64,000 bases of DNA from Candidatus Saccharimonadales bacterium (GTDB lineage Bacteria; Patescibacteriota; Saccharimonadia; UBA4664; SCTI01). A program made the translations under genes and the position numbers. Below are positions 3,907 to 53,214 of the stretch, piece after piece. The notes beneath the pieces are model-generated. The model was not told the origin of the DNA. It saw only the letters and a program-made list of their open reading frames with translations, and made no database searches. How positions within the stretch are numbered: position 1 is the first letter of the stretch; the number at the start of each line of letters is the position of its first letter. The stretch is taken from positions 15,668-79,667 of the forward strand of contig DATIII010000004.1 of assembly GCA_035479795.1 (NCBI GenBank). Direction: 5' to 3'.

Positions 3907-4308
3907 ATGGCTGTATCTGATACCGCAAAGGGGATGGGGCGGTGGAGTATAAATACTAAGGCAATTCGCCAGCATCCGATGATGAGCGATCGGATTTCGG
4001 TGCCCGTTCTCGGCGCGGCCGTAGTTTTGAATATTTGTAATCTTTTAGTTCTAATCTTTCGGGTACATCGAGCAACCTATCCGGTGCCGGTGCACTACTC
4101 CAGTCTAGTTGGCTTCGATCAGGTAGGGAGTTGGCTGGCTATCTGGCGAATTGGTCTATTTGCGCTGGCCGTCACTCTCATCAATGGTGTATTGGCGGCC
4201 AAGGCCTTCCAGCGTAATCGGCTGGCCAGCTTCTTTCTGCTGCTCGGCAGTGTTGTCGTCGGCTTGCTTTGCCTTATTATCACCTCAGCCTTTGCGGTTA
4301 TTGTCTAA
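3907..4308 (+). CDS. Integral membrane protein, hypothetical
   Basis: 133 aa, multiple TM helices; stop overlaps the start of the downstream GT2 gene (TAATG). Confidence 0.55.
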   Translation: MAVSDTAKGMGRWSINTKAIRQHPMMSDRISVPVLGAAVVLNICNLLVLIFRVHRATYPVPVHYSSLVGFDQVGSWLAIWRIGLFALAVTLINGVLAAKAFQRNRLASFFLLLGSVVVGLLCLIITSAFAVIV

Positions 4309-15372: not shown

Positions 15373-16548
15373 TTAAGCCGGCTGGTAGAACATTAGCCCG
15401 AGCTTGATTTGCAGGGCGTCGTCAAACACTCGTGGGTCAAGCCCAATGACTTTCTTGGTCTTATCTAATCTGTAAATTAAGGTGTTGCGGTGGACATGGA
15501 GTTTCTCAGCGGCTTCCGTTAGATTTAGCCCAGCCTGCAGGAATGTCTGAACGGTCTTATATAACTGCTCATCTTTTAACAAAGGATAGAGAATCTGGTG
15601 GGCCAGCTCGGCTTTGCGCTCCTGGGCCACATTGGCCAGGGTCACAAACATGCCGACTTGCTTGATGTGATAAACCCGGCCGGTGCCCCACACCTTGGTG
15701 CCGACCGTCAGGCTGAGCTTGGCTTCCTGAAAGCTCTTGCGCAGGCCACCGAGCTCGGGATAATACTGGCCGACACCGACAGAAACCTTTTTATTTGGGA
15801 ACCGCTTGGCTAGTAAATCGTGCTCATAATGACCCTTTTCAATCATGAAACGCATGGTGTTGCGTAGGGTTAGACCCTCGCCGCCGATGCCTTTGGAGAG
15901 CACGAAGATGTTGTTGCCGATGTAGCAGGCCAGATTGCCAGTGTGATTGTTAAAGCTGGCCTGAATCGCGTTGGTAATCTCGCTGGCGGCTCGAGCTACT
16001 TCCTGCTCCTGTTCGTCCGGTGTGAGCGGGGCGTGTTCGAGCCGAATGTCTTGTTCGAAGCGCTCGATTTCAATCAAGATAATGGCTTGCGGCTGGCGCA
16101 GGTTGATCTGCAGGATGTCGGCCTGACGGTAAGCCTCGGCCGCTTCAATTTTGGTGGAGGTCAGTACTTGTTTGATAAAGTTGGCCCGGATTTTTTCTGA
16201 TGGCTGGACGTGCTCGAGTAGGAAATGTTGGTGGGTAATAACCTCGGCTAGGCCTTGGAGCAGGCTGATGGCTTCGGGGGTGGTATGGGCACCTTCTTCC
16301 ACCACACCAAAGGCACCAACGGTTTGGTTTTCATACACAAACGGGCACCAGGCCACTGAAGCGTCACCCAAGCCAGTGCGAACCACCCGTCCCTCCTGGC
16401 AGGCCCTAAGGGCATCAACCAGGATCTGCCCATTATAGTTGCCTTGGGAAAGCACCAAGCCCTTGGCGTCGGCCACTAGCACACTGCGCTTCAATACGGT
16501 TTTGGCGCGCTCGGTGATTTGACCGGCGACGGCAGGATTTAATCGCAT
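15373..16548 (-). CDS. CdaR/PucR-family transcriptional regulator
   Basis: C-terminal HTH LHVHRNTLIYRLDKTKKVIGLDPRVFDDALQIKLGLMF typical of PucR/CdaR C-terminal domains. Confidence 0.75.
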   Translation of the reverse strand: MRLNPAVAGQITERAKTVLKRSVLVADAKGLVLSQGNYNGQILVDALRACQEGRVVRTGLGDASVAWCPFVYENQTVGAFGVVEEGAHTTPEAISLLQGLAEVITHQHFLLEHVQPSEKIRANFIKQVLTSTKIEAAEAYRQADILQINLRQPQAIILIEIERFEQDIRLEHAPLTPDEQEQEVARAASEITNAIQASFNNHTGNLACYIGNNIFVLSKGIGGEGLTLRNTMRFMIEKGHYEHDLLAKRFPNKKVSVGVGQYYPELGGLRKSFQEAKLSLTVGTKVWGTGRVYHIKQVGMFVTLANVAQERKAELAHQILYPLLKDEQLYKTVQTFLQAGLNLTEAAEKLHVHRNTLIYRLDKTKKVIGLDPRVFDDALQIKLGLMFYQPA

Positions 16549-16552
16549 AGCG

Positions 16553-16637
16553 GCTCCGGGATGCGGGATACGGGATGCAGAATACAGAAATAACTATGAG
16601 CTTCTCCGAATCCTGAATCCTGAATCCTGAATCCTGT
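16553..16637. repeat. Inverted arrays of tandem heptamers (CGGGATR x3-4 ... GAATCCT x4) immediately upstream of the regulator start
   Basis: ccgggatgcgggatacgggatgcagaatacag ... ccgaatcctgaatcctgaatcctgaatcctg. Confidence 0.8.
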
Positions 16638-16639
16638 TC

Positions 16640-17758
16640 TCACGATTGTTCCACAAACTTAGTAAATAGAATGGCTAGTTTTATCTGCACCGCATCATCA
16701 AAGCTACGCGGGTCCAGATTAAGTGTTTCGGCTATGCGGTCCAGTCGATATACCAGGGTGTTGCGGTGAATCCCCAGTTCGTCGGCCGTCTGCGTCAGAC
16801 CCATGTTGTTTTTAAAGAAGCTCTCAAGCGTTTGAATCACGCCGTCGTTTTCGCCCAGCTTCTCGAGCAGCTCGCGGGAAAAGTAGATGTTGCTTTCATC
16901 AATACCAGATAGCAAGGGAGCCACCACACCAAAGTCGTCGATGTGATACACCCGGTCTTTATCCCAGTTTTGCGCGCCCAGCTCGATGGCCGAAATAGCC
17001 TCGGAGTAGCTAGTGCGCAGGCCGTCCACCCCGGGGTGGTAGTTGCCAATACCGACAGTGGTGGGGCTTTTGAGCTCACCTCGGAAGATTTGGTAGATGG
17101 TGTGGATTGATTTTTTGAACCGGTCCAGTGATTCTTCCAGCGAAGTTTCGCCGCCATTTAGGTCCTTTAAAATGCAGAAGGCATTATTGCCAAGGTAGGC
17201 GATAATGTTTGATTTACTCGAGGTGTAATAAGAGTTCAAGCCGCGGCTAATGCCGAATTTGTAGCGCGTGATGCGCATTTCGCGGTCGCCTTCGTCGCGG
17301 GTCTCGCCGGTTAATACCGGATCGTCGACGGTTACTACAATGGCAATGCGCGGCACGCTCAGGTCGATGTCGAACAGCCGAGCCTCGGCGGTGATCAGTC
17401 GATCGTCGGTGGAGTGCCCGGCCAATAGGTCGTATACAAATTTATCCAGCCGTTCTTCCTGGTGGGGGAGCTGCTCAATCAGGATGGTTTGGTGCAGCAG
17501 TAGCTCGGCTATTGATCGAATCAGCGGGGCGATTTCTTCATGATTCGGCATCTGCCGGCTGAGTAAGACATAGCCCGTGGGCTTGGCGCTGTGCTGGACC
17601 ACGATGGCCCATGGATAATTGCTAATATCCAGGCTCTCCTGGACGTTGGGATCGTTTGTGGATAAAACAGTCCCCTCGGTGTCTACCACCGAAAGTGGCT
17701 GATTAACCAGGGCGCCGACCTTATCTTGGATGCGCTCCGCGATATGCTGGTTTAGCAC
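16640..17758 (-). CDS. CdaR/PucR-family transcriptional regulator (paralog)
   Basis: C-terminal HTH LGIHRNTLVYRLDRIAETLNLDPRSFDDAVQIKLAILF. Confidence 0.75.
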   Translation of the reverse strand: MLNQHIAERIQDKVGALVNQPLSVVDTEGTVLSTNDPNVQESLDISNYPWAIVVQHSAKPTGYVLLSRQMPNHEEIAPLIRSIAELLLHQTILIEQLPHQEERLDKFVYDLLAGHSTDDRLITAEARLFDIDLSVPRIAIVVTVDDPVLTGETRDEGDREMRITRYKFGISRGLNSYYTSSKSNIIAYLGNNAFCILKDLNGGETSLEESLDRFKKSIHTIYQIFRGELKSPTTVGIGNYHPGVDGLRTSYSEAISAIELGAQNWDKDRVYHIDDFGVVAPLLSGIDESNIYFSRELLEKLGENDGVIQTLESFFKNNMGLTQTADELGIHRNTLVYRLDRIAETLNLDPRSFDDAVQIKLAILFTKFVEQS

Positions 17759-29493: not shown

Positions 29494-29523
29494 TGGATCC
29501 CGAATACTCAATCCTGTATCCTG
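29494..29523. repeat. Short AATCC/ATCCT heptamer-like array
   Basis: GGATCCCGAATACTCAATCCTGTATCCTG. Confidence 0.5.
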
Positions 29524-29821
29524 TAACTAGCTCTGCATGTTGTGGTAGTCCGGTATATTTTTTTCTGTATGACTTTTTACCTCGGGAGCTCGAGATTGTC
29601 CTTGGCCTTGGCCAAGGAACTGAGAGCACCCACCTAGCTTAGGACGGGAAGAAGTTGTCCGGATACCCAACAGCGGAGATTTTTTTGTTAAAGCCTCAAT
29701 CTCGGCTCATTTCAGCGTTAACCTTGCGTCTTCGTCCTCACCGTACTAATGTGTACGTCTCGGTTGAAGTACTCGGTTTGCCTTGAAATGCGCTCGAGCT
29801 AGAGGCTTTAATGTAAAAGAA

Positions 29822-33008: not shown

Positions 33009-33384
33009 GCTAAGGCTGCTGGATGGCTGCTCGCCAGAGGCGAGAGGAAAGTCCGGACAGCACAGAGTAAGGACGGTTGCTAACGGCAACCGGGACCAGG
33101 GAATGTGTTTCTCTCGAGAAAACATAGGCCCAAAGCCTAGGGAAAGTGCCACAGAAACGATACCGCTCACCATTTTGTGAGTAAGGGTGAAACGAGCAGG
33201 GTAAGAGCCTGCAGCCCCTCCGGGTGACCGGCGGGGGAGGTAAACCCCGTCTGCTGCAAGGCTGCTGGCAATCAGAGAGTACTCGCTCCTGCCAGCGTTC
33301 GCGCCGCACGACCCCGACGGTGACGTCGGGGCTAGATAGATGGCCATCCAATCCGCCAGCTGGCGGAGGGACAGAATCCGGCTT
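33009..33384 (+). ncRNA. rnpB: RNase P RNA (bacterial type A)
   Basis: P1 helix GCTAAGGCTGC (33009-19) pairs with GCAGCCTTAGC (33370-80). Conserved GAGGAAAGTCCGG, ACAGAAACGATACCGC and GGGTGAAACGAGCAGGGTAAGAGC blocks. Overlapping track ORFs are spurious. Confidence 0.85.
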
Positions 33385-33477
33385 ATAGGCAGCCTTAGCT
33401 TAGAATAATTATCCTTCCCGAGGGGAGGGTTTTTATTTTTCAACCTGATAAAATAGTTATGTAAAAAGTGTGAGTTT

Positions 33478-34932: not shown

Positions 34933-35017
34933 TGCCAGGATTCAGGATTCAGGATTCAGGGTTCAGGATTTTCAAGCTTCTCCTAAATTCTAAACTCCAC
35001 ACTCTAAACCCTGGCAC
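34924..35017. repeat. Inverted heptamer arrays (CAGGATT x5 ... degenerate TAAAYTC) upstream of the GT4 gene
   Basis: GTGCCAGGATTCAGGATTCAGGATTCAGGGTTCAGGATTTTC ... CTCCTAAATTCTAAACTCCACACTCTAAACCCTGGCAC, with flanking 8-bp inverted ends GTGCCAGG/CCTGGCAC. Confidence 0.75.
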
Positions 35018-35023
35018 TACCCT

Positions 35024-37356: not shown

Positions 37357-37390
37357 CAATCTGGTCAATAAGTCGGGATTCAGTATTTAG
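37357..37390. repeat. Single-copy palindromic GGATTC...GAATCC motif upstream of infC
   Basis: GGGATTCAGTATTTAGAATCCAGAATGCAGG. Confidence 0.45.
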
Positions 37391-37411
37391 AATCCAGAAT
37401 GCAGGAGAAAA

Positions 37412-41878: not shown

Positions 41879-41890
41879 TAATTTTCTCGA

Positions 41891-41919
41891 TTGACTTACG
41901 CATTTATGTAGGGTAATAT
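41891..41919 (+). promoter_or_regulatory. Near-consensus sigma70 promoter
   Basis: TTGACT (41891-96), 17-nt spacer, TAATAT (41914-19). Confidence 0.55.
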
Positions 41920-41925
41920 TGTCCT

Positions 41926-42413
41926 GTTCTTCGGCGCCCGCAGGGACGTGCCGAGGACTGTACCGACAGCAACCAAGGAGAGTCATGTCATGGTCACGCA
42001 CTAGCGTGAAGACCCATGACGCTCCGTCGGAGCCGGCCTCGGGTTAGAGTCCGCTTCGGCGGGCGTCAAAAACTTCTTTCCGGCGGGCAACTTGACGCCC
42101 GCCCGTCCGGATCGAAGACAAGTACCAGGTCTGGCAGTCGACAGCCATTGACCTGAAAACATGGGATAGAGCCGAGGGCGTTGATCCGTCCAGCGGGGAT
42201 CGTCCTCGGCCTACTCCTGACAGACTTCAGTCCCAGCCGTTAAAACTTCGGACCATGGATGGTCCGCTCGTGGTGATCCGCCATCCCTGGATCACACGCA
42301 TGGCGCCGGGCCCGGGCACACAACTCAACCGCTTTCATCGGGCGGTGCGAGGTGCTCGGGCCGCGGCCCAACCCCAGTTTTCGAATCCCGAAAGCTGGGG
42401 ATTCTTTTTTTTA
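41926..42413 (+). ncRNA. Candidate structured noncoding RNA of unknown class (about 490 nt, GC-rich)
   Basis: Bounded by the promoter above and a 12-bp-stem terminator (CCCCAGTTTTCG-aatcc-CGAAAGCTGGGG + T9 at 42372-42413). No M-started ORF of 60 aa or more in any frame. Contains an AAGGAG-led 20-codon ORF and strong alternative hairpins. Confidence 0.4.
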
Positions 42414-42466
42414 GGCTTTCGAATTAAGAATTAGGCTTTCAGCTTTAAGCTTTGGGCTTTCGTCCT
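42405..42466. repeat. GGCTTTC heptamer repeat cluster
   Basis: AGGCTTTCgaattaagaattAGGCTTTCAGCTTTAAGCTTTGGGCTTTCG. Confidence 0.6.
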
Positions 42467-43719
42467 GCCGCGGCGTAGCCTTTTAGAACATTCTCATATA
42501 AATGCTCGAGCTCGTGGGCTTGGTGATCTACCGAGTATTTTGCCGCCAGCTTGATACTGGCCTTGCCCATGGCTTTACGCTTGTCATTATCTTCTAAAAT
42601 CAGGCCAATCTTTTTAGCGAAGTCGCGAGCCGAATTACGAGCAATGTAGCCATTAACTCCATTCTTCACTATTTCGGTAATTTCTTTATCAATCATCACA
42701 ATCGGCAGGCCAGCCGAAGCCGCCTCGTGGATCACCAGACCCTGAGTATCAGTGCGAGAAGGGAAGGCAAATACGTCGGCGCTGGCGTAGGCGGCACCTA
42801 GGCGTTCATGGCTGACATAGCCGGTAAATATAACTCGGTCAGCAATGCCGAGCTCATGTGCCATGGCAGCTAGCTTGCCTTGATGCTCGTGTCGGCCGAC
42901 TAGCAGTACAACCAAATCGGAGTTGGTATGAGCTAGAATGGCGGCTGCCGACAAAAGTAGTTCAATATTCTTTTCACTGCCCAGGCGGCCTGCAAACATT
43001 ACTACTTGATGATGAGGTTTAATGCCAAAACGCTTCTTAAAACTGATGACTCCCTGGTGGGATGTTGTGATTTCATCTACACCAGTCGGCAAAATTCGGA
43101 TTGGTGCCTTAGTGCCCCAGGATTTGAGTTGGCGTTCAATTTTGCGCGATGGGGCAATGATGCGATCACATTGGTTGTGCAGCATAGTGACGCCGCGGAC
43201 GACCATTTTCTTATTCCATTTATCAATATTGCGCTCGGGTTTAATACTGGATATGGCCGATCGTAGGTCGCCAATGCCGCCGCGCGTAATAAAGGGTGCG
43301 AGGATGGATAGGGCAATGGTGCCCGGCAGTACCTGTGGGTAGTGTGAAACATATTCATAAAGATCGGTATGGTAGGTGGCCATGAGCGGTACATTGTTGC
43401 GCAGGGCAAAGTAGGCACCGAGCAGCCCGATCTGGCTCGGTGTATGGAAGTGAATTACATCCAGCTTCTTATTTTTAATCATCTGCAGGGCCTGAGGGGG
43501 GAAGAAGATACTGGTCAGATAGTCGTCGTAGAACAGTCCCTTGACGGCCGGGAAACGGATAATGTTTTTGGTGCGCTCCTTGTAACGGATGCTGGGAGCT
43601 GGTGCGAAGACAAACACCTCGTGTCCCATAGACTCTAGCGCCACTCGGAAAGATTCTATGGAATAGGAAATTCCGTCGAGAGACGGAAGGTAGGAATCGC
43701 TAAACAAGCCGATACGCAT
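42445..43719 (-). CDS. Family-4 (GT-B) glycosyltransferase, possibly glycolipid synthase
   Basis: E-x7-E motif FPSRTDTQGLVIHEAASAGLPIV. Confidence 0.7.
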   Translation of the reverse strand: MRIGLFSDSYLPSLDGISYSIESFRVALESMGHEVFVFAPAPSIRYKERTKNIIRFPAVKGLFYDDYLTSIFFPPQALQMIKNKKLDVIHFHTPSQIGLLGAYFALRNNVPLMATYHTDLYEYVSHYPQVLPGTIALSILAPFITRGGIGDLRSAISSIKPERNIDKWNKKMVVRGVTMLHNQCDRIIAPSRKIERQLKSWGTKAPIRILPTGVDEITTSHQGVISFKKRFGIKPHHQVVMFAGRLGSEKNIELLLSAAAILAHTNSDLVVLLVGRHEHQGKLAAMAHELGIADRVIFTGYVSHERLGAAYASADVFAFPSRTDTQGLVIHEAASAGLPIVMIDKEITEIVKNGVNGYIARNSARDFAKKIGLILEDNDKRKAMGKASIKLAAKYSVDHQAHELEHLYENVLKGYAAAGRKPKA

Positions 43720-43722
43720 ACT

Positions 43723-43832
43723 CGAAGGATACAGGATTGAGGATACAGGATCCAGAATATGGAGATCGATAAGTCCTTAGCGAAGCCTAAAACGTGTGCT
43801 GTATCCCGAATCCCGAATCCTGTATTCTGTTG
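43723..43832. repeat. Inverted heptamer arrays (GGATWCA x4 ... TGWATCC x4) in a divergent promoter region
   Basis: AAGGATACAGGATTGAGGATACAGGATCCAGAATATGG ... GCTGTATCCCGAATCCCGAATCCTGTATTCTG. Confidence 0.8.
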
Positions 43833-43834
43833 GT

Positions 43835-44848
43835 ATGCATAAGCGTTTGCGGGTGAATGTGGTTTCCGAATCGGCCTTTACGGTGCAAGGCCACGGCGTG
43901 CATACGGCTTTTGAAGAGACGGTGCGGATGCTGCAGTGGGCAAAGAATATGACTGTGGCCTCTAATTCCAACCTGCCAGCCGATATCGTGCACATCCATA
44001 CGGTTGGCGTCTACTCATTATGGAAGTTACTTTTCAGCCGAGGTCGCAAAGTTATATCGGCGCATGTTACGCCGGATTCGTTTGTGGGCAGCCTGGTGGG
44101 TGCTCGCACTTGGTACCCATTGGCTCGTTGGTACCTACGGTGGTTCTATAATCGGGCCGACGGAGTTTTGGCTGTCAGCCACGAAGTTCAAGATGAGCTG
44201 AAGGAGTTAGGCATTACCAAGCCGGTTTATCTAATGCCCAACACCATTGATGTTAGGCCATATAAATCGACTCCGGCTATCAAAAAGGCGGCGCGTAAGC
44301 ATTTGGGCATTGGCGAATCCGAGTTTGTAGTAATCTGTTGTGGCCAAGTCCAGCCCCGCAAGCGGGTTGATACATTTATTCAATGCGCTCGCGATCTGCC
44401 TGATGTTAAGTTCGTTTGGGTTGGCGGAGTGCCCTTTAAGCGAGTAGCTGCCGATTACGGCCATATGAAGCATCTAATGGCCGATCATCCGGTAAATGTT
44501 ACCTTCACCGGAGTGATTAGCCATGCCGACGTGGTGGCCTATTATCAGGCGGCTGATCTCTTCTTTTTACCGTCTGTCCAGGAAACCTTCGGTATCGTCG
44601 TTATCGAAGCAGTGGCGGCGGGGTTGCCGGTACTCTTGCGTGACATCGACCAGTACGAGAAGACCTTCAAGGGCTGGTATTTGAAGGGCGATGAACGTAG
44701 CTTCACCGGGATCATTCATCATTTACAGCATGATAAGAAAGCCTATGCCACGGCCGTGAAGCAGTCGGCACCCATAGCCGAAGAGTACAGCAGTGAACGT
44801 GGGCGCCAGCTGTTGCTTGATATCTACACCCAAGTTTTGCAGCGCTAA
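43835..44848 (+). CDS. Family-4 (GT-B) glycosyltransferase
   Basis: E-x7-E motif FFLPSVQETFGIVVIEAVAAGLPVLL. ORF opens at 43796 inside the repeat array; ATG 43835 preferred. Confidence 0.7.
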   Translation: MHKRLRVNVVSESAFTVQGHGVHTAFEETVRMLQWAKNMTVASNSNLPADIVHIHTVGVYSLWKLLFSRGRKVISAHVTPDSFVGSLVGARTWYPLARWYLRWFYNRADGVLAVSHEVQDELKELGITKPVYLMPNTIDVRPYKSTPAIKKAARKHLGIGESEFVVICCGQVQPRKRVDTFIQCARDLPDVKFVWVGGVPFKRVAADYGHMKHLMADHPVNVTFTGVISHADVVAYYQAADLFFLPSVQETFGIVVIEAVAAGLPVLLRDIDQYEKTFKGWYLKGDERSFTGIIHHLQHDKKAYATAVKQSAPIAEEYSSERGRQLLLDIYTQVLQR

Positions 44849-46391: not shown

Positions 46392-46879
46392 AATACCTCC
46401 AATTAATGCTTTGATTTTCACAACAAAGCCGGCAGCAACCTACCACCAAGATCGAAAAAATCTGTCATTGGCGGGCATGATTTTTTGTTAGTTCGGCGCA
46501 CCCTTATGCTTTATTTCTTATCTGTAAAATGGTATTCTTTCCAAGCTGCATCGAGTATACTTTCATGCAGTTTGGACTAGGGGCTGACAAGCTTCGACGA
46601 TTGGACTTTTACAACTCGCGCCAGCAAGCCGCAGCCATGCGTTAATTGCACCAATCAACAAATCAGAACTTTGTTGCTCGGGTAAAGAGTCTGTTTCAGG
46701 CTCCCACGCTCGTACCTGCTTACGCTTAAGTAAGCCATCGGTACCTGACTCCAGATGGGGGTTCACCGGTGTCATTTATCTGGATGCTGCCGGCGGGACG
46801 CCAGACCCGCGGGTTTAAGACAGTTGGCTGCTCTAGTCGTTATTTTGTTTGTTTCAAGACGACTAGCTAAGCTTTAAAA

Positions 46880-46993
46880 CGAACTAAGCTTGTAGAAGGA
46901 CGAGAGGTAACCATTCGGACCGGGGTGCAATTCCCCGCAGCTCCACCAAAAGGGCGCCAGTAGCAACTGGTGCTTTTTTGTTATGATGAAGCC
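46880..46993 (+). promoter_or_regulatory. Structured 5' leader with terminator-like hairpin directly upstream of the hydrolase gene (candidate riboswitch or attenuator)
   Basis: CGGGGtgcaattCCCCG hairpin, then GCGCCAGTagcaaACTGGTGCTTTTTT ending 25 nt before ATG 46994. Confidence 0.3.
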
Positions 46994-50184: not shown

Positions 50185-51761
50185 TAGCTGGCCTCCAGCT
50201 GAATGATTTCCTCAACCGTCGTGATGCCAGCCAAAACTTTGTTTAGGCCGTCTTCCAGCAAAGTGGCCATGCCGTTTTTAACCGCCAAGGATTCAATGTC
50301 TTGAGCCGTGGTGCGATCGGGGGCCGTCATTAGCTTCTCGATATCCGGAGTAATGGCCATCATCTCAACTATGGCAATCCGGCCTTTATAGCCTAGGCCG
50401 TGGCATTCTTTACAGCCCTCACCTTTTTTAAGCTTTACGGTCTGCGGATTTATCTTGGGCTGTCGGTCAGGGGTGATTGTGGCCAAAGCCCGTTTTAAGA
50501 AGGCCTGCTCCTCTGCGGTGGCTGGTATTTCTTTGGCACAATTATCACAGATGCGGCGAGCTAGGCGCTGGGCAATAATCATCCGAATCGCAGATGGGAA
50601 TAGGGGGTTGGAGCCAATCATGTCCAGCATGCGGCTGATGGCCGTCGAAGCATTAGTGGCGTGGAAGGTAGAGAGCAAGAGGTGGCCGGTCAGGGCGGCC
50701 TGAAGAGCGGTTTTGGCAGTGTCGACGTCGCGAATTTCGCCGATCATGATGACATTCGGGTCTTCGCGCAGGACGGCCCGTAGCTTTTCAATAAACAGCT
50801 CCTTGTCATCACTTTTAACCGGTACTTGGCTAATGCCAGCGATGTCGTATTCTACCGGATCCTCTAGAGTAATGATCTTGGTCTCGGGATTATTTAGGCG
50901 ATTGATGATGGCGTATAGGGTCGAGGTCTTGCCCGAGCCGGTTGGGCCGACGGTTAGCATCATGCCGTTAGGGTGAGCGGTAACTTCGTCAATCCGCTGG
51001 ACCTGTGGCGGTGAGAATCCCATTTCTTCCAAGTGTAAGTTGCGGGTTTCGGCGTTAAATATCCGCACGACGATTTCTTCGCCGTGGAAGGAGGGAATGG
51101 TCTCAATCCGCATGTCCACCCGGCCAATTTCGGCGTGATTGTCCATAAGATCGTAGCTGATACGGCCAGTTTGGGGTTCATCTGAACCCCACTTTATCTC
51201 CGCCCGGGTCTGAAGATCGCTCAAGAATATCTTGTAGGCATCAGTCGCTACTTCGGTAATAGGGTGGAGAACGCCATCCAGCCGGAACCTGACCCGAGCC
51301 GAGTCGGTTTGGGGTTCGATGTGGATGTCGGAGGCCCCCAGCCAAAAGGCCAGTTGGGCAATTAAGCCAAAGGCGTCTTTAGGTGCGGCAATCTTAAGTT
51401 TGTTGCCAAAGGCCTTAAAGTCGCCGTCGCGTTCTGGTTGAAACTGGCGATAGTAAATATGATTGAGAATGTAATTGAAACCGCTCCGGGATATGGTTTT
51501 AAAGGTTAGTTGGGTATGGGCCACAGCCTGCTGCAGCTGGGGTAAGCGAGTTCGATCTGTCTGAGCTGTAATCCCCAGCTCGATGGCATGGTTGCCAGAC
51601 ACCTGCAGTGGCGCCACTTGGTATTCCCGAAGCTGCGCCAGGGACAATACGCCACCGGTGTCAGCCGCCTCCACGATATCAGTGGTGTCGGCGTAGGGGA
51701 TGCCGCTTTTGGTGGCTTCCGCCTGGGTTTTTAATTCTTCAACCGCCCTCGCATCACTCAT
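50184..51761 (-). CDS. Type II secretion/type IV pilus assembly ATPase (GspE/PilB family)
   Basis: Walker A VGPTGSGKTSTLYA, Asp box, His box, CxxC...CxxC tetracysteine. Confidence 0.85.
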   Translation of the reverse strand: MSDARAVEELKTQAEATKSGIPYADTTDIVEAADTGGVLSLAQLREYQVAPLQVSGNHAIELGITAQTDRTRLPQLQQAVAHTQLTFKTISRSGFNYILNHIYYRQFQPERDGDFKAFGNKLKIAAPKDAFGLIAQLAFWLGASDIHIEPQTDSARVRFRLDGVLHPITEVATDAYKIFLSDLQTRAEIKWGSDEPQTGRISYDLMDNHAEIGRVDMRIETIPSFHGEEIVVRIFNAETRNLHLEEMGFSPPQVQRIDEVTAHPNGMMLTVGPTGSGKTSTLYAIINRLNNPETKIITLEDPVEYDIAGISQVPVKSDDKELFIEKLRAVLREDPNVIMIGEIRDVDTAKTALQAALTGHLLLSTFHATNASTAISRMLDMIGSNPLFPSAIRMIIAQRLARRICDNCAKEIPATAEEQAFLKRALATITPDRQPKINPQTVKLKKGEGCKECHGLGYKGRIAIVEMMAITPDIEKLMTAPDRTTAQDIESLAVKNGMATLLEDGLNKVLAGITTVEEIIQLEAS

Positions 51762-51769
51762 TGCTTATA

Positions 51770-51890
51770 GAATATAGGATTCAGGATTCAGGATCCAGGA
51801 AAGAAGTGGCCAATCTAAGGAGACAGGATCTCGCATTGAGGATCAAAAGAGGGAATTTAAATCCTAGATCCTAAATCCTAGATCCTGTAA
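51770..51890. repeat. Inverted heptamer arrays (GGATTCA x3 ... AATCCTAGATCCT x2) in a divergent promoter region
   Basis: GAATATAGGATTCAGGATTCAGGATCCAGG ... GACAGGATCTCGCATTGAGGATC ... TTAAATCCTAGATCCTAAATCCTAGATCCTG. Confidence 0.8.
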
Positions 51891-51900
51891 TGTTTCTAGT

Positions 51901-53214
51901 GTGAACGACGAAATTATTATTCATCAGCACGAGCTTGATAAGCAGCCAGAGGTGAAGTCTCCCAGTCCGTGGCCCTCACGATTAAAGAAAATCGGAATTG
52001 CTCTGGCGATTATTCTGCTCGCGGCAGGCATTTTTGTCGTTATTAATTTATTTAAAGTGTCGGTTAACCCCTTTGGTTTCGGTCATCTTAAGGGAGAGTC
52101 GGACGGTCGGGTTAATATCCTGATGCTGGGGGTAGGTGATCCCGGCCATGCCGGCGAGAACCTGACCGACACCAATATTATCTTGAGTGTAAATACCAGG
52201 ACTCATCAGGTAGCGACGATTGGTGTGCCTCGCGATTTACGGGTCAGATTGCACGGCGACGGTTATGCCAAGGTTAATACGGCTTATTCCAGTGGCGGGA
52301 TCGATGGGGCTAAAAAGACCTTCGAAGACTCTTTTGGTTTGCCGATCCATTACTACGTAAAGGCCAACTTCACGGGCTTAAAAGAAGTTGTCGATGCTGT
52401 TGGGGGCGTGGACATCGACAATCAGTATGCTTTGAGCGATCCTGAGTATCCTTGTGACAAGAACGAGAACCGCAGCTGTGGGTTTCGGCTAACCGCCGGC
52501 CAGCATCATTTAGATGGAGCCACGGCTCTTAAATACGTCCGCTGCCGTAAAGGTACCTGTGGCGACGACTTTGGACGGGCGGAGCGGCAGCAGCAGGTGA
52601 TGCAGTCGATTCGCGATCACGCCACTTCGGCTGGTACGCTAGCCAATCCTCTTGCGCTGGGCCGCCTGGTAGCTGCGGCTGGCAGCAATATTAAAACCGA
52701 TTTGAGCATAAACAACCTGCAGCGGTTAAATGAACTGACCAAGGGTGGCGATGTTATTCGGGTAGTATTTAATCTTCAACCTGACGGCTTTCTCACTACA
52801 TCTGGATCCAGCGATCTTGTACCGGCTGGTGGTGACTTTGATGACATTCAGGAGTTTGTCAAAAATATATTTGTGGTTGGTCCAATCTGGAGCGAGCACC
52901 CGACAGTGATGATCGAAAACGGCACCACTACACCTGGTATTGGGGCTAAATTCCAGCAGAAGTTAAAGAGTGATGGTTATGATATCTCGGTTACGGCTGT
53001 GACAAATGCTTTGACCAAGGACTTCGCGACTTCCAAGATTATCGATTACACCAATGGCGCCAAAAACCACACCAAAGGCTACCTCTTGAATTTACTAGGG
53101 CTGAAGGAAGTCAGCGCGCCGGAAAAGCCAACCAAGTATCCGCCAGCCGACTTTGTGATAATCCTCGGATCGGATTACGCCGCTAGTTCTACAAGTACTA
53201 AATCAAACCAGTAG
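51901..53214 (+). CDS. LytR-CpsA-Psr (LCP) family cell-envelope phosphotransferase
   Basis: GTG start; N-terminal TM; NILMLGVGDPGHAGENLTDTNIILSVN...IGVPRD LCP core. Confidence 0.8.
   Translation: MNDEIIIHQHELDKQPEVKSPSPWPSRLKKIGIALAIILLAAGIFVVINLFKVSVNPFGFGHLKGESDGRVNILMLGVGDPGHAGENLTDTNIILSVNTRTHQVATIGVPRDLRVRLHGDGYAKVNTAYSSGGIDGAKKTFEDSFGLPIHYYVKANFTGLKEVVDAVGGVDIDNQYALSDPEYPCDKNENRSCGFRLTAGQHHLDGATALKYVRCRKGTCGDDFGRAERQQQVMQSIRDHATSAGTLANPLALGRLVAAAGSNIKTDLSINNLQRLNELTKGGDVIRVVFNLQPDGFLTTSGSSDLVPAGGDFDDIQEFVKNIFVVGPIWSEHPTVMIENGTTTPGIGAKFQQKLKSDGYDISVTAVTNALTKDFATSKIIDYTNGAKNHTKGYLLNLLGLKEVSAPEKPTKYPPADFVIILGSDYAASSTSTKSNQ

Follow-up and report, generated by a model that had tools for sequence, protein, structure and literature searches.

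The Correia elements of Neisseria and the REP/BIME elements of enterobacteria are small multi-copy intergenic palindromes that lie next to genes. They can be a source of promoters that point outward, give rise to RNA hairpins and act as binding sites for nucleoid proteins. A Correia element is bounded by defined terminal repeats of 26 bp, with duplication of TA, and its interior is conserved; REP elements are marked by a conserved GTAG head and go together with a RAYT transposase. Heptads are the binding units of the plasmid-borne omega repressor of pSM19035, where one ribbon-helix-helix dimer is bound per heptad WATCACW.

Paired arrays of heptamers have been reported in Geobacter metallireducens. 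This genome has eight pairs of class 3 sites, each site consisting of about five tandem heptamers with the consensus MTYCTGA and the two members of a pair being on opposite strands (Aklujkar et al. 2009, PMC2700814 Additional file 9). The authors labelled them predicted global regulator binding sites and guessed at their function (IHF/HU) (PMC2700814). This supplementary figure of the 2009 genome paper is the sole record of this kind of element that we found, and a literature search with the literal repeat returned nothing relevant. Direct repeats of another heptamer, TAACTGA, occur in marine Beggiatoaceae, Cyanobacteria and Bacteroidetes (MacGregor 2015, PMC4679880). Seven-base units are, according to Mrazek 2007 as quoted in PMC4679880, the commonest long simple repeats in many bacteria and are born of slippage. 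Heptanucleotide repeats in promoters are described as drivers of phase variation, as for hmw1A of H. influenzae (PMC8262952; introduction of PMC4679880).

The window analysed here is the whole of a 64,000-nucleotide stretch of DNA from a Candidatus Saccharimonadales bacterium (contig DATIII010000004.1 of assembly GCA_035479795.1). Two glycosyltransferase genes diverge from a 115-bp gap in this window (43720-43834). The minus-strand gene (42445-43719, with its ATG at 43719-43717) encodes a 424-aa protein, whose homologues are labelled 1,2-diacylglycerol 3-alpha-glucosyltransferase by JGI; the closest of them are only 65-71% identical. The plus-strand gene (43835-44848) encodes a 337-aa protein and is followed by an MFS transporter gene; its start ATG at 43835 agrees with the public gene call. 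Both proteins contain the Pfam domains Glycos_transf_1 and Glyco_transf_4, in agreement with a preliminary description of this DNA in which the two were called divergent GT4 genes.

The entire gap is taken up by an element that we call E3. On direct reading of the plus strand a left array of heptads, GGATACA GGATTGA GGATACA GGATCCA (43727-43754), is followed by a non-repeated spacer of 45 nt (43755-43799) and by a right array, TGTATCC CGAATCC CGAATCC TGTATTC (43800-43827). The right array is the reverse complement of a GGATNNA-type array, and the consensus form of E3 is four GGATNNA heptamers facing four TNNATCC heptamers. The region 43700-43840 reads cat, actcgaa, left array, 45-nt spacer, right array, tgttggt and ATG. 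On both sides the edge of the array is 7 nt from the start codon, and the arrangement is symmetric and centred in the gap, with its midpoint at ~43777. The preliminary description had quoted the heptamers exactly and had rightly noted the symmetry about the midpoint; the core, which it gave as 38 nt, measures 45 nt.

The two arms of E3 form an imperfect inverted repeat, with complementarity of 74% over 43 nt and 83% over 23 nt, and both strands fold with z = -3.3 relative to dinucleotide shuffles. Analysis of tandem and inverted repeats gave a periodicity of 14 nt for the left array (AGGATACAGGATTG / AGGATACAGGATCC). A search of 43650-43900 against Rfam 15 gave no match at E <= 10, and the whole window gave no match to a heptad element at gathering thresholds. 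A simple sigma70 scan of 43500-44050 found no promoter, and E3 has no good -35. A terminator scan of the same region found one unrelated terminator-like site, inside a GT4 gene, and none in E3.

The E3 arrays are one member of a repeat family with at least four paired copies in the window (E1 to E4). A search with GGATNNAGGATNNA, allowing at most one mismatch, gave 23 matches in the window compared with 3.7 expected and a maximum of 9 in 100 shuffles. The preliminary description had called the core unique, a term that holds for the core of E3 and not for its arrays.

E1 is a 91-bp element (16549-16639) that fills the whole gap between two tandem minus-strand PucR-like genes. It reads GGGATGC GGGATAC GGGATGC AGAATAC and, beyond its spacer, (GAATCCT)x4; the (GAATCCT)4.1 run is 100% perfect. 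The genes beside it (15373-17758) are tandem paralogous PucR-like regulator genes, with GGDEF_2 and HTH_30 domains, that are separated only by this element. E2, also of 91 bp (34933-35023), lies between tandem plus-strand Bac_transf and GT4 genes and consists of (CAGGATT)x5, a run with 92% matches, and then a decayed complementary arm. E4 is 139 bp long (51762-51900) and lies between divergent genes for a PilB-like ATPase and a LytR-CpsA-Psr (LCP) protein, and its arrays each end 7 nt from the start codons. Two of the four copies are therefore in tandem and two in divergent contexts. The GGAT-type arm is on the left and the ATCC-type arm on the right in all four pairs.

Partial copies are also present. 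A single arm of 33 bp on the plus strand (29495-29527, GGATCC CGAATAC TCAATCC TGTATCC TGTAAC) is found 3' of an M50 peptidase gene, with tRNA-Pro ~300 nt farther downstream. An intergenic hairpin of 23 bp (37376-37398, GGATTC agtattta GAATCC) has one unit per arm. A lone arm of four units on the same contig, CTGAATC CTGTATT CTAAATC CTGGATC (about 14640-14690 of L076, ~4 kb left of the window), ends 3 nt before a tRNA gene; a promoter-like TTGATC-16-TATTCT overlaps it. Ten kb to the left of the window, again on this contig, a degenerate pair lies between a Wzy_C gene and an integrase gene.

The units vary among copies and between arms, and include GGATTCA, GGATACA, GGATCTA/GGATTTA and GGGATGC. 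Tandem-repeat scans also find arms with 14-nt sub-periods. From these two observations we infer that the arms evolve by local tandem duplication. The spacers differ among the copies, and the 9-mers that they share are mostly heptad variants. One 9-mer, AGCTTCTCC, is common to E1 and E2; it was rejected as proof of recent duplication, being similar to inner units of the Geobacter and metagenome copies.

The family shares several features with the class 3 sites of G. metallireducens. In both cases paired arrays of ~4-5 heptamers are separated by a variable spacer, a pattern that E1 to E4 fit (E3 has 4 + 4 units and 45 nt). The minus-strand member of the Geobacter pairs is to the left of the plus-strand member in 8 of 8 cases, the same polarity as in the window, where the purine-rich GGAT/TCAG strand is the left one. 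The sites are multi-copy and intergenic, including a position within an operon (proB-proA), and they are lineage-specific, being absent from G. sulfurreducens. When read outward from the centre in the MTYCTGA register the window units become ATCCTGA, ATCCCGA or ATCCTGT. The right arm of E3 then reads ATCCCGA ATCCCGA ATCCTGT ATTCTGT, an incomplete match with 6 of 7 positions per unit, and E1 has perfect ATCCTGA units. The Geobacter units differ in being mostly ATTCTGA or CTCCTGA and not ATCC-based, they belong to a different phylum, and no link to leaderless promoters was reported for them.

The resemblance to the other systems is more limited. The TAACTGA repeats are similar in their sporadic, cross-phylum spread and in that the genes downstream mostly lack a Shine-Dalgarno sequence, but they use another heptamer, occur as 169 direct sets compared with one indirect set, and have a proposed role in translation (PMC4679880). 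The phase-variable heptanucleotide arrays are single, near-perfect, direct and polymorphic, whereas the arrays described here are paired, polar and imperfect.

Differences from the Correia and REP/BIME palindromes were also seen. Whereas Correia elements are MITEs with defined terminal repeats, the heptad family has inverted arms that consist of heptads in tandem and an interior that varies; no duplication was found, nor a transposase in the about 77 kb of this genome that was read. No flanking direct repeats that would represent target-site duplications were found at E1 to E4 or at the metagenome copies described below. The family was therefore not identified as a MITE: inverted arms are present, but a target-site duplication and a conserved interior are not. 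No GTAG head of the REP/BIME kind is seen in E1 to E4. The omega operators resemble the arrays in having contiguous 7-bp units, both direct and inverted, that overlap promoters, but their heptad is different and no such ribbon-helix-helix protein was identified here.

Three long contigs from relatives (L026, L028 and L029) were compared with the window. Synteny is kept in all three, with genes for TrmB, a ComM-like protein, GT4, a divergent GT4 or GT2, and MFS. The divergent spacers in these relatives are 39, 76 and 56 bp long and contain no heptads. The Bac_transf and GT4 genes abut or overlap in the relatives; here the 91-bp E2 lies between them. A scan of about 64 kb of the relatives' DNA gave no period-7 array, compared with seven in the window. 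This lineage has gained the heptad arrays.

Convergent TrmB-like and GT4 genes in the same syntenic block are separated by a GC-rich non-coding stretch of 566 bp (41879-42444). At the start of this stretch is a plus-strand sigma70-like promoter, TTGACT-17 nt-TAATAT, both boxes of which are kept in the three relatives, and at its end is an intrinsic terminator (~42375-42420). The stem of this terminator (42375-42420) is made of the heptad motif (GAATCCC ... GGGATTC, then T8). The gaps at the same place in the relatives are 565-825 bp long. The stretch has no Rfam match and is a candidate unannotated structured RNA of ~480 nt.

These comparisons bear on the proposal, made in the preliminary description, that the arrays serve a dimeric or oligomeric regulator of the two divergent genes or form an invertible switch. 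The inverted arrays are indeed centred in the divergent promoter region with dyad symmetry, and a TrmB-family regulator gene lies 1.8 kb from E3. The arrangement is not specific to this gene pair, since it recurs at other loci and the relatives lack it. A locus-specific operator would be expected to be kept at the orthologous promoters of relatives that have the genes and the regulator; in these relatives the TrmB gene and the synteny are kept, and the arrays are absent. As the same element is found at unrelated loci, including those of unrelated organisms, and is absent from the orthologous promoters, a dedicated dimeric regulator of the two GT4 genes is unlikely. The invertible switch has no recombinase gene among the genes annotated around the element, a core of only 45 bp and arms that match at 74-83%. 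A single orientation is seen in three assemblies, which is weak evidence because they are clonal. Taken as one reading, an operator private to the two genes or an invertible promoter segment is scarcely credible.

The three assemblies are the MAG GCA_964594805.1 (contig CAZQMU010000002.1) and two Logan assemblies, all of them consensus sequences and clonal. Every aligned contig of the available assemblies, which come from two sequencing runs, matches the window with 100% identity. This bears on a further possibility, that E3 is a contingency locus in which slipped-strand gain or loss of heptads alters promoter spacing and switches both surface glycosyltransferase genes on or off. The precedent of phase-variable heptanucleotide promoter repeats (PMC8262952; PMC4679880) is consistent with this idea. 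So too are the surface-related target genes, the differing unit numbers among orthologous phage-like copies (see below) and the perfect or near-perfect runs of E1 and E2. The units of E3 itself are imperfect, with 74% matches in the left array and only 2.6 perfect units in the right, which disfavours slippage. No difference is seen at E2 and E3 in the assemblies from the two runs, or at E4 in one of them, although identity between clonal assemblies is weak evidence. We regard a contingency locus as very doubtful.

The position of the arrays relative to the start codons suggests a role as promoter DNA. Leaderless genes carry, as a signature, a TANNNT motif that precedes their start codon by about 10-12 bp (PMC3160421). 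In E3 the terminal heptad of the right array provides a -10-like TATTCT on the plus strand (43823-43828), 6 nt before the ATG at 43835, and that of the left array provides TATCCT on the minus strand (43726-43731), 6 nt before the minus-strand ATG at 43719. At E4 a TATTCT on the minus strand is 7 nt before the gene start at 51761, and a TAATGT on the plus strand is 7 nt before the GTG at 51901. All four genes flanking the divergent E3 and E4 therefore have a TANNNT 6-7 nt before the start, derived from the terminal heptad. In this genome TANNNT peaks 6-9 nt before starts, with 5, 5, 3 and 3 cases at these positions compared with about 1.3 per position elsewhere. Genes beside arrays have a Shine-Dalgarno in 1/6 cases compared with 24/62, a depletion that is not significant.

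The same geometry is visible away from the arrays. TATAAT or TANNNT is found 6-9 nt upstream of many genes, for example those at 3907, 23188, 32415 and 44864, and several have TATAAT at +6 or +7; the hexamer is TATAAT at 3907, 23188 and 44864. A Shine-Dalgarno-like motif is found in only about 40% of genes. Together these features suggest that leaderless transcription is common in this Saccharimonadales genome.

The evidence leans, by a modest degree, towards E3 being a diverged copy of a dispersed, polar, palindromic heptad element that serves as promoter DNA for two probably leaderless genes. Such an element would have the form (GGATTCA-like)n, a variable spacer and (TGAATCC-like)n. The family would colonise intergenic DNA whatever the orientation of the genes, presumably by copying or mobility, and its arms would lengthen and shorten through tandem duplication or slippage of 7- and 14-nt units. 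The outermost heptads (TGTATTC-T and TGTATCC-T) would give the TANNNT -10-like boxes 6 nt before each ATG, with the other heptads occupying the promoter spacer and the -35 region. That the family exists, that it is polar and lineage-specific, and that the terminal heptads have the -10 geometry are direct observations; the mode of spread, the leaderless transcripts and any effect of the element on expression are inferences. The missing sigma70 match and the lack of a good -35 run counter to this reading, as do the unconserved spacers and the lack of target-site duplications, which are atypical of MITEs.

Under this promoter reading the arrays would act as duplex DNA, and neither an RNA hairpin nor a cruciform nor an operator for particular genes would be at work. 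If the mRNAs are leaderless, the arms of E3 are not transcribed with the genes, and a 45-nt spacer between arms of 74-83% complementarity makes a poor cruciform. Duplex promoter DNA is therefore the most economical reading.

The element is also found in other genomes. The exact pattern (GGATTCA)2-N3-33-(TGAATCC)2 was searched in viral and metagenome contigs, in both orders of the arms. It was present in 114 metagenome contigs and 2 viral contigs. The converse polarity was found in 0 metagenome and 0 viral contigs by the same exact search. The 114 metagenome matches represent about 55 flank-distinct loci, on contigs with a GC content of 0.40-0.70; each arm in these copies holds 2-13 units, and the median length of the copies is 70 bp. 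One match is on a 2.6-Mb contig, where the flanking TonB-dependent receptor is closest to Bacteroidota proteins.

The distinctive feature of the family is the paired polar arrangement and not the heptamer. Enrichment of the heptamer alone was considered and set aside: (GGATTCA)3 is present in 21 viral contigs, compared with 14 and 11 for two shuffled heptamers. A palindrome of this polarity presents the same strand, 5'-(GGATTCA)n...(TGAATCC)n-3', from either DNA strand. The bias of 55:0 therefore points to recognition of a hairpin or strand, to oriented protein contacts or to descent by copying.

The gene context of the metagenome copies resembles ordinary intergenic DNA, with 33 copies between tandem genes (stop/start), 8 between divergent genes (start/start) and 7 between convergent genes (stop/stop). 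The distance from the element is 0-10 nt for stop codons and 0-20 nt for start codons. A search of ten metagenome copies against Rfam at permissive thresholds gave only sub-threshold matches to generic miRNA-hairpin models. One paired element, at 785-873 of contig L118, is within a match to the cobalamin riboswitch RF00174 (710-1061). This match spans 352 nt for a 189-position model, and the element looks inserted into a tolerant loop.

Conservation of the element can be followed in a phage-like family from peat and soil metagenomes, which comprises L078/L079 and ten related contigs, eight orthologous contigs being compared. The element is kept between tandem genes for proteins of 161 aa and 213 aa (for example at 8972-9046 of L078), and is followed by GGAGG and an ATG. 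Neither PHROGs nor Pfam assigned a function to the genes on either side of this copy. The flanking coding sequence has clearly diverged among the eight contigs with the element still in place. At positions not fixed by the search the arms vary at 5/28 positions, compared with about 10/19 for the spacer. One arm in contig L106 has lost a unit through an 8-nt deletion. A mismatched pair of units, GGAGYCA opposite CGAATCC, is kept in these orthologues without compensation.

The complementarity of the arms gave no clear sign that an RNA or cruciform stem is selected. Over all copies, beyond the fixed core, arm-to-arm complementarity is 12.4 of 28 compared with 11.3 for permuted arms, a small excess, and the orthologues show no compensatory changes. 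The pattern of variation suggests that the arms are constrained in sequence, for example by protein binding, more than would be expected of a purely selfish or structural element.

Such a constraint would suit a reading in which a DNA-binding protein, abundant or global in its action, uses the heptads as arrayed operators; it could be a ribbon-helix-helix protein like omega or a nucleoid protein of the sort suggested for Geobacter. This protein would coat -14 to -41 of both promoters and co-regulate mostly cell-surface genes. The inverted arrays, whose 7-bp units follow one another without gaps, overlap the presumed promoters, the orthologous arms are conserved in sequence as the spacer drifts, and oriented protein-protein contacts could account for the fixed polarity. 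Surface-glycan genes adjoin three of the four pairs in the window (Bac_transf/GT4, GT4/GT4 and LCP/PilB; rough p about 0.03), which hints at a regulon; the fourth pair is between the PucR-like regulator genes. The Geobacter authors also called their like sites global-regulator sites (PMC2700814). Against this, no candidate binding protein was identified, and the variable positions of the heptad differ widely among copies. Elements elsewhere occupy intergenic positions of all kinds, some of them following stop codons and one inside a riboswitch, and their sporadic presence across phyla would need a mobile or very widespread protein. This reading is plausible, and we give it a low probability.

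A role at the level of RNA has also to be weighed. Transcripts could form an imperfect hairpin of 28-43 bp that acts on mRNA stability or processing (of the RNase III type) or on translational coupling. E1 to E4 all fold well, with energies from -22 to -44 kcal/mol and z from -1.7 to -4.7. Most outside copies are between tandem genes, close to a stop codon on one side and a start codon on the other, and the phage-like copy is conserved in just such a position. The same RNA, 5'-(GGAUUCA)n...(UGAAUCC)n-3', would be made from either strand, so that the polarity bias can be read as an RNA property. The genes at E3 appear to be leaderless, however, so neither mRNA would hold the arms. No T-run stands 3' of any arm in E1 to E4, and the hairpins, lacking a U-tract, are not intrinsic terminators. 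There is no compensatory covariation, conserved mismatches are retained, the sense strand of E2 folds worse than the antisense strand, and no Rfam family is matched. A role for the RNA is improbable on this evidence.

A broader reading concerns the family as a whole. (GGATTCA)n-spacer-(TGAATCC)n may be a functional module found across phyla, in Patescibacteria, Desulfobacterota, Bacteroidota-like organisms and phages. Its strict polarity and conserved arms would then be due to recognition by a nucleic-acid-binding factor that is itself conserved, or by an enzyme dedicated to mobilising it. This lineage would have domesticated the module into a leaderless promoter cassette that serves surface-glycan genes in both directions, and its output would be set by the number or occupancy of the heptads. 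We put this forward as a speculation that is, on balance, unlikely.

In comparison with the literature searched, it appears to be new that the element occurs in Patescibacteria, that it is so broadly distributed and so strictly polar, and that it apparently provides the ends of leaderless promoters. If the family is functional it represents a widely distributed, essentially undescribed cis-element. The absolute polarity rule, with about 55 independent loci against 0, demands a mechanism. In Saccharibacteria the element is found at genes for surface glycans, pili and the attachment of cell-wall glycopolymers, the structures that mediate epibiotic life. If the family is selfish or born of slippage, it would still aid annotators by explaining odd intergenic spacers and marking split operons, and would caution against reading each copy as a private operator.

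The window also contains two RNAs outside the heptad family. RNase P RNA (class A) and tmRNA, at 33011-33401 and 46580-46948, score well and are ordinary housekeeping RNAs.
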